A stretch of DNA of 64,000 nt from Escherichia phage ECO340P2, in sequence record OP172792, one strand, 5' to 3'. How positions within the stretch are numbered: position 1 is the stretch's first letter; each line of letters starts with the position of its first letter. Made by a program: the position numbers and the translations under genes. Positions 32,104 to 44,513 of this stretch are shown piece by piece. The notes under the pieces were generated by a model. That model saw only the letters and a program-made list of their open reading frames with translations, was not told where the DNA came from and made no database searches.

Positions 32104-32140
32104 TAAAGGGGCTTCGGCCCCTTCTAAAAGGAGTGCTACT

Positions 32141-32899
32141 ATGGGAAATAAAACCGCAGCTAAAACACAACGGCAGAAACTGGCTAATTCAGCAAAGATT
32201 GAAAGCCGTTATGCAGCAAAAGCGGTAGGTAATGACGATTACCGTTTAGATGAATTTATGCCTGAAGGGGACCAAAATAAGATTGTTCAAAGCATGATTT
32301 GGAATGATCTGACTGTTGTAAATGCTCCGGCAGGGACTGGTAAAACCTCTGTTGCTTTATGGAAAGCTTTGCAGATGCTTCGTTCAGGAGACTTCCGTAA
32401 ACTACTTTTTATCAAGAACCCTACTGAAGTCGGAGATGATCAGATTGGTTTCTTGTCGGGGGATAAAACAGATAAACTAGCAGCACACTATGAATCTACA
32501 AAACGTATTTTCCAGCAATTCATGACAGCCAACAAATTGGAAAACGATATTGGATCAGGTAAGATCGAATTGAATATTCCTAACTATTTGTTAGGGGCTA
32601 CCCTGGATAATACAATTGTCATTATTGACGAAGCACAACTTATGTCAACAGAAACACTTAAACTTCTTATTGAACGTGCAGGTATTAATACGCATGTTAT
32701 TGTATTAGGCGATGTTCGCCAGACATATGCAATTAAAAAACGTAGCAATGGTCTGCATCAAATTTTGGAACTTTTATATCCAGAAAATGAAGAAGGTGTT
32801 CGTGAGCCAATTGTAGATTTTATTGGATACGTTGAACTGACAACGGACGATAATAAACGTGGACGTTTGTCTAAACTGATTACTGAAGTGTTTATTTAA
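32141..32899 (+). CDS. phoH: PhoH-like ATPase
   Basis: Walker A PAGTGKTS, Walker B IIDEAQ; ATG after AAGGAG (ORF-track start 32090 overlaps lysozyme). Confidence 0.75.
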   Translation: MGNKTAAKTQRQKLANSAKIESRYAAKAVGNDDYRLDEFMPEGDQNKIVQSMIWNDLTVVNAPAGTGKTSVALWKALQMLRSGDFRKLLFIKNPTEVGDDQIGFLSGDKTDKLAAHYESTKRIFQQFMTANKLENDIGSGKIELNIPNYLLGATLDNTIVIIDEAQLMSTETLKLLIERAGINTHVIVLGDVRQTYAIKKRSNGLHQILELLYPENEEGVREPIVDFIGYVELTTDDNKRGRLSKLITEVFI

Positions 32900-32931: not shown

Positions 32932-33435
32932 TTGATGGGTGTAGCAACAATAGCTATCGGAAGAAGCGGTATAGATGAGTGCTATCAAACGGGACTCGTA
33001 AAACCTAACGAATTTCGTCAAATTTGTGTAAACCATATTGAAAAAGAGATTGCTCTTACTTTAGAGAATATGACCCTCCGAGATAAACTGGAAATGTTTA
33101 AATGTTGGTGTCTAGGAGAAGATTGGCTTTTAAACCATTTTCAAGAACTTTCTGATAGTAAAGAAAGCTTGTTTGATTGTATAATAGGAATAGCTGGCTC
33201 CGATCCTACCCTTCTGCACATAACAGAAGAAGAGGCGAAGTTACTGTTCTTAAGTAATTTGTTTAATAAGAAAGCACTGCTTGTTCGTGATTGCAGTGAT
33301 CTTCTTAATAACCCGCTCGCAACGTCTGATCAAATTTTTGTTGACAAAGAGACACTACGTGCGATAGAATACATCTGCAAATATGTGAATGGCGGGAAAG
33401 CGGTTCTTAAAACATTAACAGAGGAGGAAGAATAG
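32932..33435 (+). CDS. hypothetical protein
   Basis: 167 aa ORF, RBS AGGAGG. Confidence 0.5.
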   Translation: MMGVATIAIGRSGIDECYQTGLVKPNEFRQICVNHIEKEIALTLENMTLRDKLEMFKCWCLGEDWLLNHFQELSDSKESLFDCIIGIAGSDPTLLHITEEEAKLLFLSNLFNKKALLVRDCSDLLNNPLATSDQIFVDKETLRAIEYICKYVNGGKAVLKTLTEEEE

Positions 33436-34127
33436 TGACGACAATTATTGCAACCAAAAATAAGATTTTGAGTGACGGTAAGGTAACTTTTGGTGGACGT
33501 GTAGATTCTATTAATTTCAAAAAGGTCCGAAAAATTGGAGATTACCTTGTAGGTGGTGCTGGTCGTCTGACCTCCGTGCTTTCTTTCTTTCAATGGTTTG
33601 AACAAAATCTACAGTGCGAAGCAGCACGTGATGCTGTCCCTGGTTTGATGATTCACTCTGATCCAGATAAAGAAGATGAAGAGTTTATTGCACTTGTTGT
33701 TCATCCAGACGGACGTATTTTCCTGCACGAAGGTAACAACCCAACACGTGCATATCCGATTGATGAAGAATATTATGCAGTAGGGAGTGGGTCAGATTTT
33801 GCTTTAGCTGCTCTTGATGCAGGGGCAACACCAGAACAGGCTATGGAAGTAGCTAAAAAGCGAGATGCTTTTTCTGGTGGTGAAACATTTATTGAAGAAC
33901 AAGACGAGATTATTGAATTAACAGATGATGATTTAGAAAACTTCTCCAAAGAAGAATTGATCAATCTTTTGAAATTCGGTAATCCCTACGGTGAAGAAGA
34001 ACCTCGTAACGTGGCAGGTAACGAGGCGGATACTGAAGAAAAATCTGTTGCAGAAAACAACTTGACTTCTAAATCTGAAAATATTAATCTCGTAAATGTG
34101 GCGGATTTCGAAGGAACCGCTATTTAA
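33435..34127 (+). CDS. HslV-like N-terminal nucleophile peptidase (proteasome beta-type fold) with acidic C-terminal tail, GTG start
   Basis: mature N-terminus TTIIA, KVRK, VGGAG and AVGSGSDFALAA align with recalled E. coli HslV blocks. Confidence 0.65.
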   Translation: MTTIIATKNKILSDGKVTFGGRVDSINFKKVRKIGDYLVGGAGRLTSVLSFFQWFEQNLQCEAARDAVPGLMIHSDPDKEDEEFIALVVHPDGRIFLHEGNNPTRAYPIDEEYYAVGSGSDFALAALDAGATPEQAMEVAKKRDAFSGGETFIEEQDEIIELTDDDLENFSKEELINLLKFGNPYGEEEPRNVAGNEADTEEKSVAENNLTSKSENINLVNVADFEGTAI

Positions 34128-34172
34128 CAAACTGCCCCTTCGGGGGCATTTCTTAAACATAGGAGATTAATA

Positions 34173-35806: not shown

Positions 35807-36379
35807 ATGCGTTCAACTTTCACTGGCAAAATAAATGCTGGTTTGATTTTTACAGCAGTAAGCATTCTTAGCAAAAAGTTTAAAGTTGTTAACTTACCTG
35901 TGTGTGTCGATTTCGATCATGTTTTTGATCCTTCGAACCCCACTCGTTGCATAGTAAGGAGTAATGTTGAAAACCCAACAGAAAATCTTTTTTATGTAAC
36001 AAAACCATCTCAAAGCATACTTAACCAGGTTGAGGCGAAATTGATACCTAACGGTAAATATTACTCCTTTTTACCTTGTAAGTCGGTTGAAGTAGAGAAT
36101 AGCAATACTTTCGCTAATAACTTGTCTGTATTCGTTTTCTTTGTTTCACAGGAAGACGAAACAGATGAAATGGTAGCAACAGTGAGATCACTTTATGACT
36201 CTTTAGGGGTTGTTTATAGTCAACAAGTGTGCGAAAATAATAAAGCCTGTGTAGATTTCATTATCAACGGTATTTGTGTTTGTAGAGTAGAATCTTTTTG
36301 GCTGCACGATACATATGTGACTGTAGCAGAGGTTATATCTGAACCAAGATTTAGTCATGCGGTTTCGTTAATAATTTGA
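35807..36379 (+). CDS. hypothetical protein
   Basis: ATG after GAGGAG; ORF-track start 35789 overlaps upstream gene. Confidence 0.5.
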   Translation: MRSTFTGKINAGLIFTAVSILSKKFKVVNLPVCVDFDHVFDPSNPTRCIVRSNVENPTENLFYVTKPSQSILNQVEAKLIPNGKYYSFLPCKSVEVENSNTFANNLSVFVFFVSQEDETDEMVATVRSLYDSLGVVYSQQVCENNKACVDFIINGICVCRVESFWLHDTYVTVAEVISEPRFSHAVSLII

Positions 36380-36389
36380 GGAGGAAGGA

Positions 36390-36719
36390 ATGGAAATTAC
36401 TACAGAACAAGCCCTTATCGACGAGGGTCGTAAAATCTTAGAAAAGTATTTAGGGGAGATTCATAAAACCCCTGGCTATTTGGGTTGGAGAATTGTTGAA
36501 GCTGTAGATTTCCTTCCTCGTAACAGTAAAAACGTCGAAATGCGATCTCTTTTCTTATTAGTAAAGGTGGATGGGGATACGCCTTTTAAAGATGCCGCAG
36601 AACATATTGAAAAAGTTGAAGAGAAAGCTTATGCAGAATTTGCCGATCTTGTTTTAGAACAAGAGATTGAAGGAAAGGTGAATATTTTTATTTTCTTAGA
36701 TTTTGAGGAGGATAAGTGA
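36390..36719 (+). CDS. hypothetical protein
   Basis: 109 aa ORF, RBS GAGGAGG. Confidence 0.5.
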   Translation: MEITTEQALIDEGRKILEKYLGEIHKTPGYLGWRIVEAVDFLPRNSKNVEMRSLFLLVKVDGDTPFKDAAEHIEKVEEKAYAEFADLVLEQEIEGKVNIFIFLDFEEDK

Positions 36720-37459
36720 TCATACACAGAGAAATTACTGTTAAAAGCGATCAAGATCTTTTTATAATTGGAGATCTACACGGTTGTTATAATTTGTATG
36801 AAAAAGGAAAGGCAAAGTTAGGTATCCGAGATACAGATGTGGTTGTATCTCTAGGAGATCTTACTGACCGTGGAAAGCAAAACTTTCGTTGTGTTTTAGA
36901 ATTTACTCGTAAACACAATCGCTACGCTATTCGTGGCAATCATGAAGACATGATGATTAAAGGTATGCTGGAAGGAGATCGTAGCTACTACGAGTGTTGG
37001 TATCAAAATGGAGGATATACGGTCTTTGAAGAATGTGGTGAAGAAGGAGCTACAGCCTTAGCAATGATGACAGAAGATTTACCTGTTGTTCTCATTGTTA
37101 ACTACAGAGGCATGAAACTTGCGTTTATTCATGGTGGGTATCCATCTTCTTTGGAATATCTCCCTGTAACAGATATTCCAGAATACATTTCGAAGATGAC
37201 AAAAACACAGGAAAACCGTTTTGCTGAAGCACTTATGTGGGACAGAGATATGGTAGACTGTGCTAAAGAGGGAATGAAACTTCCTGTTGTGATGGGTGTG
37301 GATTATGTGTTTCATGGACACTCTTATGTAAAAACACCTATTATCAATGCGAATCGTGTTTATATGGATACTGGATCTGTGTTCAATAATAACTTAACAT
37401 TTGCTTATTTCGATATGGACGGTGGTCTTCAATTTTATTCAACTCTTGAGGAGGATTAA
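36716..37459 (+). CDS. Ser/Thr protein phosphatase (PPP-family metallophosphatase, lambda PPase-like)
   Basis: GDLHGC, GDLTDRG, RGNHE motifs in canonical order. Confidence 0.75.
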   Translation: MIIHREITVKSDQDLFIIGDLHGCYNLYEKGKAKLGIRDTDVVVSLGDLTDRGKQNFRCVLEFTRKHNRYAIRGNHEDMMIKGMLEGDRSYYECWYQNGGYTVFEECGEEGATALAMMTEDLPVVLIVNYRGMKLAFIHGGYPSSLEYLPVTDIPEYISKMTKTQENRFAEALMWDRDMVDCAKEGMKLPVVMGVDYVFHGHSYVKTPIINANRVYMDTGSVFNNNLTFAYFDMDGGLQFYSTLEED

Positions 37460-37767
37460 TGTATAAGATTACAATTATTCAAAGTGTAGGTAATATCCGT
37501 AAAGAAGTTATCTTAGAAACAGAAGATGTTAATCTTGTTCGTGAGATTGTTCTTAAGGAAGATAACCTGCAAGCTGTAGAATCAGATGCACCGAATCTTA
37601 TGGTGGATCAAGAATATTCTGAACTTCGTCGTATTTTTGAAGAGATTCAGAAGAAAGAAACACAACCTACCATAAAACCTTTTGGCCCTTATGATCCGAG
37701 CAATCCTAGCAGTCCTTGGATCATGAGAAATACGGAACCCTATACACCTTTTGAAATTACTTGTTGA
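37459..37767 (+). CDS. hypothetical protein
   Basis: 102 aa ORF. Confidence 0.5.
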   Translation: MYKITIIQSVGNIRKEVILETEDVNLVREIVLKEDNLQAVESDAPNLMVDQEYSELRRIFEEIQKKETQPTIKPFGPYDPSNPSSPWIMRNTEPYTPFEITC

Positions 37768-37774
37768 GGTGATT

Positions 37775-38356
37775 ATGGCAGAACTGTTCTATACGGGAGT
37801 TGGAAGTAGAGACATATCCGAAGAAGAGTGGGCTTTGATGGTAGGTATAGGGAAATGGCTTTCAAACCTTGGGTTTAAATTAAGGTCTGGGAAGGCAGAG
37901 GGTAGTGATTCTGCTTTTGAAACAGGTGTCCAAGAGTCTGAAAATCCTACTAACAAGGAGATTTATGTTCCTTGGGAAAATTTCAAAGGTAATCAGATTC
38001 CAGGGGATGTTATTGTTCTTGCAAAACCAGATACAATGAACTATGCTATCTCTGTGCAGTGGATCAAAGATGTTCACCCAGCCTATGAAAAGCTTAAGCA
38101 GGGTGCCAGAAAATTGCACCAACGTAATGTGCATCAAGTGTTAGGTAGAGATTTGGAGAATCCTGCTCCATCATGTTTCTTGTTGGCTTGTGCTAATACT
38201 GATAAACATGGAGATGCAAAAGGTGGAACAGCTACGGCTTGGAAGATAGCTAAAGCCAATAATGTTCCTTGTTTAAACATTCGTGGGAAAACAAAACAAG
38301 AGATTTACGATTTTCTACGACCTTTGGTAATGAGGGCAATAACAAGTGATTCCTAA
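37775..38356 (+). CDS. Rossmann-fold protein, DprA/SLOG-like
   Basis: YTGVGSRD ... LRSGKAEGSDSAFETG resembles DprA/LOG-type nucleotide-binding loops; ATG after GAGGTGA. Confidence 0.4.
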   Translation: MAELFYTGVGSRDISEEEWALMVGIGKWLSNLGFKLRSGKAEGSDSAFETGVQESENPTNKEIYVPWENFKGNQIPGDVIVLAKPDTMNYAISVQWIKDVHPAYEKLKQGARKLHQRNVHQVLGRDLENPAPSCFLLACANTDKHGDAKGGTATAWKIAKANNVPCLNIRGKTKQEIYDFLRPLVMRAITSDS

Positions 38357-38858
38357 ACGTAAACGTGGTGAACAAAGAACAAACTTGGCAGAAATCTTAG
38401 ATTACAACATGGTTAATGATGTGACAAAAGAAATTCTGCCTGTTGTAGAAGATATTCTTCAAAGAGGATTACGATTCTGCTCGGATCGGGTGCATTTCAT
38501 GTGGACACATAAAAGTGACTCCGCTTTGAATTTCTATCCTTTGGATTATACTCTGAACAATACAGAGATGAAAGATATCAACAAATACTTAATGGGATAT
38601 AAAGATATAACCGAAACCGTTCTTGGAGAATTGGCAGAAATCTTGGCTAACGATATCCTTAGAAATATTAATAAGGCTCTTGACAGAAGCCCAGCAGGAG
38701 TAGTAGTATCTTTTGCTGTGCCAGATATGGTTAAATATGAGTCTACAATACCTAATAAAGCTTATGCCTTTCTTCGGAGAGACGTTCGTGGAAATGTGTT
38801 GGAGATGGAGTCAAACTACAAGATTGAGGAGGTTTTATGGCAGAGTTCGGATCAGTAA
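38346..38858 (+). CDS. hypothetical protein
   Basis: 170 aa ORF. Confidence 0.5.
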   Translation: MIPKRKRGEQRTNLAEILDYNMVNDVTKEILPVVEDILQRGLRFCSDRVHFMWTHKSDSALNFYPLDYTLNNTEMKDINKYLMGYKDITETVLGELAEILANDILRNINKALDRSPAGVVVSFAVPDMVKYESTIPNKAYAFLRRDVRGNVLEMESNYKIEEVLWQSSDQ

Positions 38859-39127
38859 CAAGTTTTGAAAGTAACTTCGTTACCGCTTGGGAAGCTTGGG
38901 ATGAAATGGGTGTTGGTGAACTTTATTTTTACAATGTAACACTACGTCCAGAGTATGCTTATCTGGTACCAGAAGGAACAGTTCAAATTGGCATGTATCT
39001 GTCTTCTCAAGACGGTGTTGTTCAATTTGAGTTTTATTCAAACACAACGGACAACGAATTTACATATCGTGCATTTCATGTCAACATGTCTTTAGGAGAG
39101 GAGAAATTTTATGACGACCAAGTTTAA
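38837..39127 (+). CDS. hypothetical protein
   Basis: 96 aa ORF. Confidence 0.5.
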   Translation: MAEFGSVTSFESNFVTAWEAWDEMGVGELYFYNVTLRPEYAYLVPEGTVQIGMYLSSQDGVVQFEFYSNTTDNEFTYRAFHVNMSLGEEKFYDDQV

Positions 39128-39308
39128 AACAGTAGAAGAAGCCGTAAAAGCAGCTTATGAGGCTTTAGCGGAAGCAGAGCAGTTAGCAGATGAGACTGGT
39201 AAAGGTTTCCGTTTCTCCCCTGAATATGGGATGGGTGGCTATTATGATCCAGAAGATGAAAATGAGAATACTGGAACAAATTGGCATCCATCTTCTTTAA
39301 GTTGTTAA
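39111..39308 (+). CDS. small protein, WxSS..C C-terminal family member 1
   Basis: 65 aa; ends GTNWHPSSLSC. Confidence 0.5.
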   Translation: MTTKFKTVEEAVKAAYEALAEAEQLADETGKGFRFSPEYGMGGYYDPEDENENTGTNWHPSSLSC

Positions 39309-39319
39309 TAGGAGGTAAA

Positions 39320-39595
39320 GTGGGAATCGAAGATATCAAAGGTTATAAGGCGCATACTGACGATAAGATTGGCAAGGTTAACGCTATTAAAGATGCAGAA
39401 GAGCGTTTAGGTTTAATCTTCAAAGCTTTAGAGGAAGAGTATTGTGAAGCATATCATGGGTCTTTTGACGGCACAGAAAAAGAATTAGATTTTGCATACG
39501 AACGTATTGATCAAATCCGTTGTGCTATTAAACATTTAAAAGAAGCTAGTATGTGGGCTTGTCGTTCAGTTTTCCAACCAGAGGAGAAATATTAA
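39320..39595 (+). CDS. hypothetical protein, GTG start
   Basis: GTG 4 nt after AGGAGG; ORF-track TTG start at 39281 has no RBS. Confidence 0.4.
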   Translation: MGIEDIKGYKAHTDDKIGKVNAIKDAEERLGLIFKALEEEYCEAYHGSFDGTEKELDFAYERIDQIRCAIKHLKEASMWACRSVFQPEEKY

Positions 39596-39813
39596 TGAGT
39601 GATCGTAATGTTGAAGAATTAACTGAAAAAGCCCAAGCTATTATGGCTTTAGTTGACGAACTTACAAAAGAAGCTGAAGATGCTGGTTTTGGTCTTAGTT
39701 TAGAAGATAATGCAATCTGTTTTGAAGATTGGCAATCCTCTTCTTGTTATGGTGAAGGTGACGATGGTTTCGTTGTTAATTCTCAAGGCGTTTGGCACAG
39801 TAGTAGCTGTTAA
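39595..39813 (+). CDS. small protein, WxSS..C C-terminal family member 2
   Basis: ATG after GAGGAGA; ends GVWHSSSC. Confidence 0.5.
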   Translation: MSDRNVEELTEKAQAIMALVDELTKEAEDAGFGLSLEDNAICFEDWQSSSCYGEGDDGFVVNSQGVWHSSSC

Positions 39814-39822
39814 GGAGAGATT

Positions 39823-40095
39823 GTGGAGTCTGAAGGCGAACTGCTGATAAAAAAGAAAGTTAAAGAGATGGAACAAGCACAAAGAAAGTTTCGTAAAGAG
39901 ATTGAAGAACTTTGTGAACAATTTCAGGAACAAGCTTGGATTGGTGACTATGATAATGGAGAAACTTATTACCCTACCGGAACACCAGCCGCAGACCACT
40001 ATATTGACTTTATTTGTGAAGATTATGGTGTAGAGTTAGATGAAAATGGTTTAACCACAAGAGGTGTTTGGGTCTCTTCTTCATCAATGTGTTAG
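39823..40095 (+). CDS. small protein, WxSS..C C-terminal family member 3, GTG start
   Basis: ends GVWVSSSSMC; RBS AAGGAGAG. Confidence 0.5.
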   Translation: MESEGELLIKKKVKEMEQAQRKFRKEIEELCEQFQEQAWIGDYDNGETYYPTGTPAADHYIDFICEDYGVELDENGLTTRGVWVSSSSMC

Positions 40096-40104
40096 TAAAT
40101 AATA

Positions 40105-40126
40105 ACCCGCTTCGGCGGGTTTTTTA
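40105..40126 (+). terminator. rho-independent terminator
   Basis: ACCCGC-TTCG-GCGGGT hairpin followed by TTTTTTA. Confidence 0.6.
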
Positions 40127-40155
40127 TTGACAGAGATAGGGAAGCTTGATAAACT
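40127..40155 (+). promoter_or_regulatory. sigma70-like promoter (TTGACA-17-TAAACT)
   Basis: abuts terminator T-tract (TTTTTATTGACA), same arrangement as at 21717. Confidence 0.4.
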
Positions 40156-40185
40156 TGATCTATCAACCAATAGAGGAGAAATATT

Positions 40186-41127
40186 ATGGTGTTAATTGGT
40201 AGCCGTGCATTACAAATTCATGCTATGGATATGGGAAAAGACTTGTATCGCCCTTGTGTAGATTTAGATTACCTGTGTACAGAACAAGAGTGGGAAGAAT
40301 TATCAAAAATGTTCTCTCAAGAGGAGTTTGTTGAACTTGTAGAACGTAAAGGGAACAAGGGCCATGTCAAAATGATAGCTGGTGCACATTTGGAATACGA
40401 TATTGCTTCTCAAGGAGATAGCACAGAAGCTTTGATTAGTTATTGTGAAGAGTCTGATGATATTCGTCGAACTTACGCTGGACATGTTGTTGCTCCTTTA
40501 GATGTGCTCTACCTTCTTAAAATGAGTCATCGTTTTAAAAAGGATAGTCCTCACTTCTTTAAAACTATGAAAGATATTCATTTCATGCGATCACTGGGCG
40601 CAAAGATCCCAGAAAATCTTAAGAGTATTTATGAGTTGCGTGAGAAAGAAACATACACTTACTCTCATCCAAACTTAAACGTAAAAAGTAAAGACTTCTT
40701 TAAAGGTGATGAGGTTCCGTATGTTTATGATCATGATTCTATCCACGAAGCCATTGCGGTAATGGATGCTCCAGCATATAAATCTTATATGAAAGATGGA
40801 AGTGAAGTTATGACCAGCAAAGAAAAGTTTTTTGCTCAACCAAAACATGTGCGCCTGTTAGGTGTTTATGAAGAAGCGTGTGTTTTGGCTTTGGAACGTT
40901 CACAAATTCCTTTCGGTGAAGAGATCGGAGGTCCAACACCTAAGCAAAGTTTTATGATGGCTTTATCTAAAGTTTGCACATCCATTACTAGTGGTTGGTT
41001 TAGGGAATATGCCTGGGAGAACTTTTACGTTGTTACTAAACTATATGAAAACATGGGTGAAAACGACTATGTTGAACGTTTTAAAGCTAATCGCCATGTA
41101 GTAAAGCCTTTTGAAGGAGGTTATTAA
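40186..41127 (+). CDS. hypothetical protein
   Basis: 313 aa ORF, RBS AGAGGAG. Confidence 0.55.
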   Translation: MVLIGSRALQIHAMDMGKDLYRPCVDLDYLCTEQEWEELSKMFSQEEFVELVERKGNKGHVKMIAGAHLEYDIASQGDSTEALISYCEESDDIRRTYAGHVVAPLDVLYLLKMSHRFKKDSPHFFKTMKDIHFMRSLGAKIPENLKSIYELREKETYTYSHPNLNVKSKDFFKGDEVPYVYDHDSIHEAIAVMDAPAYKSYMKDGSEVMTSKEKFFAQPKHVRLLGVYEEACVLALERSQIPFGEEIGGPTPKQSFMMALSKVCTSITSGWFREYAWENFYVVTKLYENMGENDYVERFKANRHVVKPFEGGY

Positions 41128-41128
41128 T

Positions 41129-41524
41129 ATGTGTGGATATCTTTCAGAAAGTTATTTCAAAGTGACCCATGAGGATTTAGAAAAAGCACGATTGAAATTG
41201 ACAGCTATTATTGAATACTCTAATACTGTTGATCACAGATTAAAGACTACTAAAGTATCTGTTCCTTGTTGGTTAGGTTTACGGCATAAAACAATGTCTC
41301 AACATGATCATGTTGTTCGAGAGATGCATGGTTGGTGTTGGTTTCACGATGTGGCTCTGCATTTTGGTTATATTACAGAAGAAGAACATAGATTCTGTGA
41401 GCTAACATATCGTATTCCAACCCTTCACGATTTAGATTTGTGGAGGAAAGCAAGTGAGATCTTTCTGACAGAAAGTGATTGGCGTAAAGTTATGGCTTGT
41501 CTTGAATGGAGGGGCAATGAGTAA
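41129..41524 (+). CDS. hypothetical protein
   Basis: ATG after GGAGG; ORF-track start 41111 is inside previous gene. Confidence 0.5.
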   Translation: MCGYLSESYFKVTHEDLEKARLKLTAIIEYSNTVDHRLKTTKVSVPCWLGLRHKTMSQHDHVVREMHGWCWFHDVALHFGYITEEEHRFCELTYRIPTLHDLDLWRKASEIFLTESDWRKVMACLEWRGNE

Positions 41525-42200
41525 AACAGTTTTGTCTATGTTTGACGGATCTGGTATCATGGTGTTACGTTATGCCGAAGCAGGTCACAAGTGTTTTTGT
41601 GTAAACGCTGATGAAGGGGACCACGGTAAATACGAGGTCAGGATGGAGCACCCAAACATAACCTATGTGAATGCTTGGATAGATTCTACATTCAACCCTG
41701 AAGATCACGGAATACCTAAACCCGATATTATTTTTGGATTTCCACCTTGCACTATGTTAGCAGGTAGTGGTAGCAAACACGAACGTAGCACAGAGGAATT
41801 AGATGAAGCTTTAGCTAATATTCGTGTAGTGGAAGCTTTGGGTAACAAATACAATGTTCCTTGGATGATTGAGAACCCAGTAGGTAAACTTTCAACCTTA
41901 TGGCGTAAACCTGATTTTTACTTTGATCCTTATGAGTATGGTGGGTATTTGTTTGAAGAGGAAGGAAGCTTTCATCCTAAAATGCCTACCCGCGATGGAT
42001 ATACAAAGAAAACTTGTATCTGGTACGGAAATGGTTTTGTTCAACCAGTGAAGAAACCAGTAGATCATATAGGCTGTTTCTGGGGTTGGAAAAGCTTGGG
42101 TGGAGCTAGTGCAAAAACAAAACAACTTAGATCGCTAACAGCACGTGGTTTTGCTCGTGCAGTGTTTTTGTCTAACAATCTTCTAGATAAGGAGAAATGA
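41517..42200 (+). CDS. compact DNA (cytosine-5) methyltransferase-like protein
   Basis: motif I-like MFDGSG, motif IV-like FGFPPC, motif VI-like WMIENPVGKL; only ~227 aa, no obvious target-recognition domain. Confidence 0.45.
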   Translation: MSKTVLSMFDGSGIMVLRYAEAGHKCFCVNADEGDHGKYEVRMEHPNITYVNAWIDSTFNPEDHGIPKPDIIFGFPPCTMLAGSGSKHERSTEELDEALANIRVVEALGNKYNVPWMIENPVGKLSTLWRKPDFYFDPYEYGGYLFEEEGSFHPKMPTRDGYTKKTCIWYGNGFVQPVKKPVDHIGCFWGWKSLGGASAKTKQLRSLTARGFARAVFLSNNLLDKEK

Positions 42201-42853
42201 TGTCAAATTCAAAACAATTAGTTGCTTATCAAGTAGATCGTAATGATGGGGAAGGAAGTGTTGTTATTTTCAGTACACACGGTCTTGAGGCTCGTCGAAA
42301 AGGTGCATATCGTTTAGAATGTGAGTTTGAAGACTGCACAAGCCACCGTGTCAAACAATTCGATCAATATGCTGATAAAGGCTTCGTCCCTATCAAAGCC
42401 TTACTGGAAGATGGTTGGTGGGTATATTCTGCTTTTGATTACTCAAAACTGGAGGAGTCAGCTTCGTGCGCCTCCGAGATCGAATATGATGATTACTATG
42501 ACACTCTCTACCTTCCAGAATGGCTTGTCTTTTCTCCTGATGAGAGAAGTGTCTGGAAAACTTGGGAAGAAATGGAGAGACATGCATATAGCATCAATGA
42601 AGCCTTAGATCGTAAAGCTTGGTTTATTGAGGCAGTAAAGGCGGCATACCCTCAATTCTCATTTTGTGATTTCACTGGTGGCCCAGGATACATTACACAT
42701 ACAGCCTCTTTTGAGTTCCCTGGCTCACGTTATAAAGGTAATGTTTATTGGGATTGGGATGAAAATAAACAACCTTCGGCTCAAGACTTCCGTTGCTATG
42801 TTTGCCAAGGTGATCAAGAAGCCCTTGACAAATACCTTCAAAGTCTGATATAG
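42197..42853 (+). CDS. hypothetical protein
   Basis: 218 aa ORF overlapping previous stop. Confidence 0.5.
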   Translation: MMSNSKQLVAYQVDRNDGEGSVVIFSTHGLEARRKGAYRLECEFEDCTSHRVKQFDQYADKGFVPIKALLEDGWWVYSAFDYSKLEESASCASEIEYDDYYDTLYLPEWLVFSPDERSVWKTWEEMERHAYSINEALDRKAWFIEAVKAAYPQFSFCDFTGGPGYITHTASFEFPGSRYKGNVYWDWDENKQPSAQDFRCYVCQGDQEALDKYLQSLI

Positions 42854-42870
42854 TGTCAACATCTGAACAA

Positions 42871-42897
42871 AGCCCCCTGTTTCAGGGGGTTTTTCTT
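42871..42897 (+). terminator. rho-independent terminator
   Basis: CCCCCTG-TTTC-AGGGGG hairpin followed by TTTTTCTTT. Confidence 0.55.
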
Positions 42898-42910
42898 TAT
42901 AGGAGGAAAT

Positions 42911-43396
42911 ATGTTTCAAGTAAATGTCAATGTGCATAATAGTTACTCTGATTGTGAAACGTGTGGCTATAGTTCATCTAATGTTGTTCGTATCAGTGGT
43001 GATTTGGGAGAAGCTTCTTTTGGAGAAGAAGCAAGTTGCTTTAGCGGTATGGATGCAGAATGGAATGATATTGCACATTGGTTGGTGAGCAAACTAAAAG
43101 AAAAAGAGAAACCATTTCCTACTCTGCTTGATCGTTCTCTTGTAGAAGACGCAGGTAAAGCCTATGCAGATTACGCTTATGCAGATGGGAAGTACTTGGA
43201 AGATGACAAGGCTAACCATTTGCTTTATGTTTACTATGAAGCTGAAGCTGCCTATGATAATTATTATAGTATGTCCAATATCTTACGGCTATTTGCAGAG
43301 TTTGATATCTATTTTGAAGTAGAGTTTTCAGAAGATGATACTTACGAGTATGATTCTTATGATCCATTTGAGGAGGAAGAATGCCAAGACGAGTGA
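42911..43396 (+). CDS. hypothetical highly acidic protein
   Basis: 161 aa; Asp/Glu/Tyr-rich C-terminal half; 3' end overlaps the Sir2 gene start. Confidence 0.5.
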   Translation: MFQVNVNVHNSYSDCETCGYSSSNVVRISGDLGEASFGEEASCFSGMDAEWNDIAHWLVSKLKEKEKPFPTLLDRSLVEDAGKAYADYAYADGKYLEDDKANHLLYVYYEAEAAYDNYYSMSNILRLFAEFDIYFEVEFSEDDTYEYDSYDPFEEEECQDE

Positions 43397-44196
43397 TTTT
43401 TGTAAGTGGTGCAGGTTTAAGTGCAGACAGTGGGATTCGAACATTCAGAACAGACACAGATAGCGGTCGTGCTTTATGGGAAGAATACGATTTAGAAGAG
43501 GTCTGCAATATTGGAGCTTTCCAAGCAGGTTATCGTGTGAGAACATCTCCAGATCTTCCGGTGGTTGGAGGTGTAGACGAGAACGGTATAGATTTATATG
43601 CCAAAACACACGAATTTTATAACAAAAGACGTGTTGAGCTTAAAAACGTACAACCTAATGCTGCGCATCTTCAAATAGCCAAATGGTTTAAGGAATATCC
43701 TAACCAGGTAGTAAACTTGACAACAAATGTCGATGATCTACTAGAGCGAGCAGGGGTAGACAGGGACTCGGTTGTTCACGTGCACGGTTATCTTCCTGAA
43801 GTAGTCTGCCGTATGCACCCTGGAGATTACAAAACACTGGTGGATATTGGTTACAATAGTATAAACATAGATGATTATAACTGGGTGAAGCCTAATGTAG
43901 TCTTCTTTGGGGAAGCTGCTCCACTTTACACGGATATGTATCATATTTTTGATACATTGACGTCTCAAGATATGGTGATTGTAGTAGGCTGCTCTAATCA
44001 AGTTATCAATTTTAACTGGGAGCTTTTTCCTGCTCTTAACATCGGGACAAAAATGGTCGTAGTTAATCCAGGAGTTAATTACGAAGAAACACTTCTCTAT
44101 GAAGATCGTGGAGTTTTTGTTTACCGAGAAAAAGCTGTAACAGCCTTCAGTAATGAAGGTTTCATTAAAATGGTCGAAGACCACTTAAACAAATAA
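43381..44196 (+). CDS. Sir2-family (sirtuin-like) NAD-dependent protein
   Basis: N-terminal VIFVSGAGLSADSGIRTFR matches the sirtuin NAD-binding signature GAGxSxxSGIPxFR. Confidence 0.7.
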   Translation: MPRRVIFVSGAGLSADSGIRTFRTDTDSGRALWEEYDLEEVCNIGAFQAGYRVRTSPDLPVVGGVDENGIDLYAKTHEFYNKRRVELKNVQPNAAHLQIAKWFKEYPNQVVNLTTNVDDLLERAGVDRDSVVHVHGYLPEVVCRMHPGDYKTLVDIGYNSINIDDYNWVKPNVVFFGEAAPLYTDMYHIFDTLTSQDMVIVVGCSNQVINFNWELFPALNIGTKMVVVNPGVNYEETLLYEDRGVFVYREKAVTAFSNEGFIKMVEDHLNK

Positions 44197-44207
44197 ACCA
44201 CTCAAGG

Positions 44208-44228
44208 GGCTTCGGCCCCTTTTCTTAT
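44208..44228 (+). terminator. rho-independent terminator
   Basis: GGGGC-TTCG-GCCCC hairpin followed by TTTTCTT. Confidence 0.55.
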
Positions 44229-44240
44229 TAGGAGAACAAA

Positions 44241-44513
44241 ATGACTGAAGAAATCCGTGATTACTACCTTGCACATTACGTTTACTACTTTGCCAATGCT
44301 ACACAAAAAGGGGAAGGTAATCTTTACTTGGCAACAGGACATGGAACAGGTGTTAGGAAATCAAATATTGATAACGCTTTGGCTCAAGTAGCGGCTGGGC
44401 TAGAAGATAAACTTCAAACCCCTGTAGTTGTAGTGATGCAAAATATAAGTTACCTAGCAAGTTGTACTGAAACCGAATTTAACGCGTCTGAAACGCAATC
44501 TAACGAAGAATAA
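44241..44513 (+). CDS. hypothetical protein
   Basis: 90 aa ORF, last gene of the plus-strand block. Confidence 0.5.
   Translation: MTEEIRDYYLAHYVYYFANATQKGEGNLYLATGHGTGVRKSNIDNALAQVAAGLEDKLQTPVVVVMQNISYLASCTETEFNASETQSNEE

Follow-up and report, generated by a model that had tools for sequence, protein, structure and literature searches.

The stretch examined here, 64,000 nt of Escherichia phage ECO340P2 (sequence record OP172792; the window in what follows), contains at 33435-34127 an open reading frame (ORF) for a threonine peptidase of the proteasome fold. The peptidase gene is the last of three genes on the same strand, in the order PhoH, gp236 and peptidase. The three genes are bounded by hairpins and lie in a block of replication and nucleotide-metabolism genes. 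An earlier note, made from the letters of the window, had placed the ORF at these positions and had taken its product for an HslV-like peptidase without an adjacent HslU. The ORF was confirmed, with a GTG start, a GAGGAGG ribosome-binding site and a product of 230 residues. The product is an N-terminal-threonine peptidase with the proteasome/HslV fold, as the note had it, but it is not HslV proper: it fails the HslV equivalog cut-offs, and helix H2 of HslV is replaced by another segment. 'PPH-type with C-terminal extension' is the safest label for it.

The window comes from a Phapecoctavirus (a phAPEC8-like coliphage, that is, a myovirus of E. coli). It is 98-99% identical over its whole length to Escherichia phage Mt1B1_P17 and spans the arbitrary ends of that record. 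The peptidase gene is 100% identical to the Mt1B1_P17 gene, and 64 phage records, nearly all of them Phapecoctavirus, have it at 95% identity or more. The exact protein is found in GenBank (for example phAPEC8 AFU62667.1, 'peptidase HslV family') and occurs on 393 contigs, and RefSeq gives the gene the same name, which is also that of PHROG 1040. Both the gene and its kind are therefore already known, being annotated in GenBank and RefSeq and belonging to a phage clade defined bioinformatically in 2021. HslV without HslU has also been remarked on in another phage (PMC7823757). The family was collected from 233 phage records and 316 IMG/VR loci; relatives occur in Stephanstirmvirinae and in phages of Vibrio, Aeromonas, Caulobacter and Rhizobium. 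Only two matches were found among 185,579 species genomes of cellular organisms, one on a 425-bp contig and one in a distant metagenome-assembled genome. The subfamily is almost restricted to viruses and essentially absent from cellular genomes.

One base is common to the start of the peptidase gene and the TAG stop of the ORF before it, and a GGAGG-type site stands at the same position in related peptidase loci, which start with ATG. The N-terminus reads M-T-T-I-I. Since 213 of the 233 collected family members or representatives begin with MTT[IVL], the GTG start is correct and the family, judged by its sequences, has no propeptide. In several GenBank records, among them that of Escherichia phage vB_EcoM-Ro121c4YLVW (P0023 in our numbering), the peptidase gene is labelled 'hypothetical protein' or is begun at an internal Met. 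The internal-Met annotations give a product of 159 aa that starts with MIHSDPDK, and they miss the GTG start and thus the catalytic threonine.

Fold, active site and HslU docking surface

The peptidase matches PHROG 1040 from end to end (residues 1-229, E = 1.6e-63). Against Pfam PF00227 (Proteasome) it scores 25.6 bits, a narrow pass over the gathering cut-off of 22.4, and several relatives score just under that cut-off. The closest solved relatives by sequence are HslVs. In the predicted structure, the alpha-beta-beta-alpha N-terminal nucleophile (Ntn) fold can be superposed on proteasome beta subunits and on HslV. Structure comparison of the model gave 15.4 for BPH (beta-proteobacterial proteasome homologue), 13.9 for Anbu and 11 for connectase. 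Chance does not account for the likeness to the proteasome/HslV family.

Among 53 aligned homologues, with identities down to 27%, T2, T3, I4, D14, K30, G117, S118 and G119 are invariant. The E. coli HslV reference sequence was compared with the chains in the PDB, which start at Thr, and in the profile of the 53-homologue alignment the TT pair is aligned to residue 1 of the mature HslV chains. By profile alignment T2, D14, K30 and G117-S118-G119 of the phage protein correspond to T1, D17, K33 and G123-S124-G125 of E. coli HslV. The earlier note had pointed to a Thr directly after the initiator, which is borne out by the MTTII start and the invariance of T2, and the blocks that it had matched to HslV stand where it had put them, KVRK at residue 30, VGGAG at residue 39 and GSGSDFALAA at residue 117.

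The HslV equivalog models of NCBIfam gave a different picture. The protein scored 32.2 bits against a cut-off of 137 (NF003964) and 31.4 bits against 157.75 (TIGR03692), falling more than 100 bits short of both. Helix H1 covers residues 45-67 in the model and is followed by the 17-residue stretch VPGLMIHSDPDKEDEEF, which DSSP assigns as coil from 68 to 84. The segment aligned to the H2/pore motif of HslV (about residues 75-91 of the E. coli protein) is PGLMIHSDPDKEDEEF, in which R86-L88 are deleted. The basic H2 residues K80, R83, R86, R89 and K90 of HslV give way to the acidic stretch SDPDKEDEE in the phage protein. Compared with HslV, the phage protein also has a four-residue deletion in the first hairpin and bears an extra C-terminal extension of 75 residues. 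HslV K28, which forms a salt bridge with the HslU carboxylate, has a Ser opposite it in the alignment. The HslV residues reported to accommodate the C-terminus of HslU are F54, F57, A79, K80 and Q114 (PMC6429459); in the profile alignment these positions are occupied by L, F, D, P and P in the phage protein. The peptidase is not an HslV orthologue, and from the model and the profile alignment canonical docking onto HslU appears improbable.

These data bear directly on the idea that HslV-like rings of the phage protein dock onto host HslU hexamers, replace host HslV or mix with it, and so redirect ATP-dependent proteolysis. The change of A79, K80 and Q114 to D, P and P and the loss of R86-L88 speak against it, as does the failure of the HslV equivalog models. 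In addition, the acidic coil that takes the place of the basic H2 would face the C-terminal carboxylate of HslU. The describers of the PPH clade saw no co-occurring AAA+ protein, and they give PPH for Actinobacteria, where HslV is unlisted (PMC8665760). We regard docking onto host HslU as unlikely. The earlier note had left the choice between host HslU and action alone; with the pocket mostly lost and H2 turned into an acidic coil, the first of these is the less likely and the second is better supported. The label 'HslV' is misleading where the HslU docking surface is missing, and experiments should not presume host HslU.

Likeness to the PPH and RPC clades

Fuchs, Alva and Lupas surveyed the proteasome homologues in 2021 and defined the PPH and RPC clades (PMC8665760). 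According to the survey, just helix H2 is missing in PPH and RPC and in no other homologues, a propeptide is absent from all of the new homologues, and Caudovirales carry PPH. For the new homologues its authors found neither an AAA+ interactor that co-occurs with them nor a gene context that is informative. The loop following H1/H2 is described as short in HslV, which is gated by HslU, and the C-termini in the proteasome fold as pointing away from the presumed ring. Table 1 of the survey lists PPH for Actinobacteria and does not list HslV there, and RPC is reported from proteobacterial genomes only (PMC8665760).

The peptidase scored 69 bits to a phage form of 146 aa (P0081) and 54 bits to one of 139 aa (P0082), and 39 bits to the best HslV. 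With the family profile, many representatives of 137-150 aa were found at 105-130 bits; such forms were themselves included in the profile. We assign the protein to the PPH/RPC group because H2 is missing, the loop is acidic, there is no propeptide, the gene is borne by phages and there is no AAA+ partner. The PPH-type label is the safest because RPC was reported only from proteobacterial genomes, while the phage subfamily is nearly absent from cellular genomes. The label is given by features and scores, not by position in the cluster map of the authors.

C-terminal extension, gene neighbourhood and candidate ATPases

Table 1. Features of the peptidase gene and of the three-gene unit in the window
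Feature	Position	Strand	Remarks
GC-rich hairpin AAAGGGGCTTCGGCCCCTTC	32105..32124		between lysozyme and PhoH genes; 5' boundary of unit
PhoH-like P-loop ATPase, first gene of unit	32141..32899	+	PF02562, E = 1.2e-36
Upstream gene, Mt1B1_P17 gp236 (PHROG 14834)	32935..33435	+	stop overlaps peptidase start
Sigma-70-like promoter match, TTGACA, 18-nt spacer, TAGAAT (11/12)	33341..33370	+	within 3' end of gp236
Shine-Dalgarno sequence GAGGAGG	33421..33427	+	7 nt 5' of GTG
PPH-type peptidase gene (RefSeq 'peptidase HslV family')	33435..34127	+	GTG start, TAA stop, 230 aa
Catalytic core, residues 1-155	33435..33899	+	beta-sandwich with helices H1, H3, H4
Thr2 codon (mature Thr1, predicted nucleophile)	33438..33440	+	invariant in family
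Acidic coil VPGLMIHSDPDKEDEEF, residues 68-84, net -5	33636..33686	+	occupies position of HslV helix H2/pore motif
Acidic linker and two short helices, residues 156-185	33900..33989	+	helices 164-169 and 172-181, pLDDT ~90
Disordered acidic tail (predicted), residues 186-230, net -8	33990..34124	+	
Terminator-like GC-rich hairpin TGCCCCTTCGGGGGCA, then TTTCTT	34133..34148	+	6 nt past peptidase stop

Residues 156-230 contain 20 Asp or Glu and 5 Lys or Arg, a net charge of -15. The acidic 60-residue tail of the earlier note is real as to charge; it is about 75 residues long, its first 30 residues form a conserved two-helix element, confidently folded in the model, and only 186-230 are predicted to be disordered. 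The motif ELTxxxLxxxSKEELxxLLxxG stands directly C-terminal to the core in 120 of the 233 family sequences. Beyond this motif the family varies from 15 to 193 residues, with about 20% identity even between close relatives. The tails are net negative in 98% of the family, with a median charge of -7. A helical element followed by an acidic bristle conserved in composition points to an arm for docking or recruitment.

A Pfam scan of the longer extensions at the C-terminus of relatives (up to 379 aa, some rich in Cys) found no domain. Among them the metagenomic relatives P0061-P0069, of 264-379 aa, carry Cys-rich segments such as CxxxxxxxxHPPKHKGVCKFCGK, with a conserved WRLHNA or WKLADE at the very end; their extensions had no Pfam match. 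It may be that one peptidase core is combined here with alternative targeting modules.

The gene neighbourhood was surveyed in 80 IMG/VR loci and in annotated phage loci. A PhoH-like gene stands 2-9 genes upstream of the peptidase gene in all 24 loci with the tail motif (at -2 in 18 of them) and in 2 of the 47 without it. The linkage holds down to peptidases of 36-38% identity, where the genes in between differ. Since the loci are related by descent, this is suggestive of a linkage between PhoH and the tail-bearing subfamily and is not statistical proof. The gp236 gene is kept immediately 5' of the peptidase gene down to a group with peptidases about 47% identical. The model of gp236 is confident and helical, and it had no match among solved structures. 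The PADLOC defence models, run on the peptidase and both neighbours, gave no match.

A hairpin just past the peptidase stop is kept in position, not in sequence, across distant lineages (L005, L013, L025, L024, L030, L031 and L006), which suggests that the peptidase gene regularly ends a transcription unit. The internal sigma-70-like promoter match was not relied on; only some relatives keep its hexamers, and the codons for VDKETLRAIEY impose them.

Over the whole peptidase family no neighbour is conserved. In a distant group with proteins of about 180 aa the gene adjoins a CHAP endolysin or an M23 peptidase, and in Caulobacter and Rhodobacter phages it lies near NAD-salvage and RNA-repair genes. 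The position among genes of nucleotide and cofactor metabolism in several phages would suit an Ntn enzyme that does not degrade proteins at all and acts in site-specific processing, as a transpeptidase or ligase like connectase, or as a small-molecule amidase. Connectase shows that the fold can support ligation (PMC8665760), and without H2 a closed chamber for degradation may be unable to form. We nevertheless hold a non-degradative role to be quite unlikely.

The peptidase could also be thought of as the prohead protease for capsid maturation, as it is encoded by a large myovirus in which no gene of the head module is annotated as a protease. However, about 30 kb separate the gene from the head module, and it sits on the opposite strand among replication genes, not beside the portal and scaffold genes. 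The ORF that adjoins the portal gene (window 1296-1775, minus strand) matches head-maturation-protease PHROGs, and Escherichia phage VEcB is viable without the catalytic N-terminus of the peptidase. A role in capsid maturation is thus hardly credible. As for the ORF at 1296-1775, it encodes 159 aa between the portal and scaffold-like genes and is named 'DNA methyltransferase' in RefSeq, after PHROG 1530. The head-maturation PHROGs that it also matches are 3017 and 34096, and it is probably a mislabelled prohead protease.

Downstream, the plus-strand run at about 36,000-44,500 of the window corresponds to gp229-gp213 of Mt1B1_P17 and includes a NinI-like Ser/Thr phosphatase, a DprA-like protein, two DNA methyltransferases and a Sir2-like protein. 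This accessory run looks like a block for host takeover or counter-defence. It also holds two ORFs labelled 'histidyl tRNA synthetase', which, with about 190 aa each, are too small to be that enzyme.

In phages of the Aeromonas phage 4L372D type (L030; also L028) two Ntn paralogues lie side by side, at 5432-5983 and 6001-6885 of L030. One, of 183 aa, starts with MTCII and reads GCG instead of GSG; its neighbour, of 294 aa, bears the tail and starts with MTTIA. A two-subunit, hetero-oligomeric proteasome homologue is conceivable in these Aeromonas phages.

The earlier note had stated that the window contains no HslU-like AAA+ gene, and the full annotation of the near-identical Mt1B1_P17 agrees with it. 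No HslU-, ClpX-, ClpA- or Lon-like gene is annotated in that complete genome, which is a statement about the deposited annotation as read and not about a profile search of every ORF in the window. The sole classical AAA protein is Mt1B1_P17 gp041 (379 aa, PF00004, PHROG 2376), encoded outside the window (L002 16017-17156, minus strand). Its relatives are found mainly in Enterococcus, Bacillus, Staphylococcus, Lactobacillus and Lactococcus phages of the Herelleviridae type, and its distribution overlaps that of the peptidase only in Stephanstirmvirinae and a few Aeromonas phages. Because its phage distribution does not follow the peptidase, gp041 was rejected as a dedicated unfoldase; its relatives are absent from the peptidase-carrying Vibrio, Caulobacter and Rhizobium phages. 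One gp041 homologue is recorded as 'putative ATPase or Zn metalloprotease'.

In Escherichia phage VEcB (L091 2501-3304; NC_052663.1 21495-22298) the unit is reduced to one ORF of 267 aa, in which residues 1-112 of PhoH are fused to about residues 63-217 of the peptidase. The deletion has removed the gp236 homologue together with the catalytic N-terminus, and the RefSeq label is still 'peptidase HslV family'. VEcB, a viable isolate, is a natural knockout of the whole unit of three genes. Since this isolate was propagated and sequenced, growth in culture does not depend on the module. The natural deletion offers a handle for comparison with intact relatives in Justusliebigvirus.

The neighbourhood raises the question of whether the peptidase and the phage PhoH-like ATPase, possibly with gp236 as an adaptor or assembly factor, form a nucleotide-dependent proteolytic module in which the C-terminal helices and tail would serve as the docking element. 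The presence of PhoH in every tail-motif locus, its near absence from the others, and the persistence of the linkage to distant peptidases despite differing intervening genes are consistent with such a module. So are the hairpin-bounded unit, the overlapping stop and start codons and the loss of parts of all three genes in VEcB in a single event. On the other hand, the loci are phylogenetically related, so the 24 cases are not independent events, and short PPH forms occur without PhoH. An activity known from the family is that of an RNA helicase/RNase in PhoH2. PhoH proteins are not known to act as protein unfoldases, which also counts against the module. We consider it unlikely. In its boldest form this would be a virus-only machine, in which a co-transcribed P-loop ATPase of the PhoH type, and not an AAA+ unfoldase, feeds or regulates the peptidase, gp236 is translationally coupled to it and the SKEEL helices and tail couple the parts; we think this improbable. 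If true, it would give a role to PhoH, which is among the most widespread phage auxiliary genes of unknown function.

Proposed function and comparison with known systems

Taken together, the data make it probable that the protein is a stand-alone threonine peptidase of the PPH/RPC group, self-maturing and independent of HslU, which is expressed with PhoH and gp236. The initiator Met would be removed by host methionine aminopeptidase and Thr1 exposed, as we infer from the known specificity of that enzyme and by analogy with E. coli HslV. The subunits would assemble by themselves and, in the infected cell, would cleave polypeptides that are unfolded or disordered; they would not dock to host HslU. 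The C-terminal helices, which face outward, and the acidic tail may form the binding site for a partner or a substrate. Virulent phages infecting E. coli, Klebsiella, Vibrio, Aeromonas, Caulobacter and Rhizobium keep such a threonine peptidase in early or middle gene blocks, and it could plausibly serve them to take over the host or to counter its defences.

Several points weigh against this proposal. The case against HslU comes from a monomer model and a profile alignment, and the protein may make a non-canonical contact with HslU or with another host unfoldase. HslV alone is a poor peptidase. A subunit without H2 might be unable to form a closed chamber; for some homologues Fuchs et al. allow other quaternary structures (PMC8665760). 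The strict linkage to PhoH could mean that the peptidase is not truly stand-alone. A literature search for phage HslV, HslV-like proteins and follow-ups on PPH found genome notes only and no functional study. Useful new leads are the linkage to PhoH, the conservation of the tail element and the deletion seen in VEcB.

Among known systems, HslV (ClpQ) is the one whose name the gene bears. The phage peptidase differs from it in having no H2/pore motif and no conserved pocket, and hslU is not annotated next to it or elsewhere in the genome. BPH (PDB 5ovs) retains helix H2, which is missing from the phage peptidase, as well as H1, and assembles into heptameric double rings; it is a cellular and not a viral protein and lacks an acidic tail at its C-terminus.

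Rrp (SP_1145 of Streptococcus pneumoniae TIGR4) is a protease of the proteasome fold borne on a mobile genetic element, and it trims the disordered tail of a ribosomal protein without a dedicated ATPase (preprint 10.64898/2026.08.10.744006). Compared by description, both are Ntn proteases on phage or phage-like mobile elements, with independence of an ATPase and low specificity on the side of Rrp. Rrp differs in being Anbu-like with extra domains and in its Gram-positive mobile element. By analogy, it may be taken as a precedent for stand-alone action.

The closest likeness is to PPH and RPC. Like them, the protein is compact in its core, has the Thr1/Asp17/Lys33 triad and the Gly at the oxyanion position, and has neither a propeptide nor H2, and as a phage-borne protein it sides with PPH. 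With RPC it shares a C-terminal extension directed away from the presumed ring, and PPH and RPC likewise have no AAA+ partner. Its core is about 155 residues, not about 140 as in PPH and RPC. The SKEEL-type two-helix element, the acidic tail and the PhoH linkage are not mentioned for PPH or RPC in the parts of the survey cited here (PMC8665760). What appears to be new beyond the described clade is the conserved two-helix element with its acidic disordered tail, and the linkage to PhoH in a hairpin-bounded unit.

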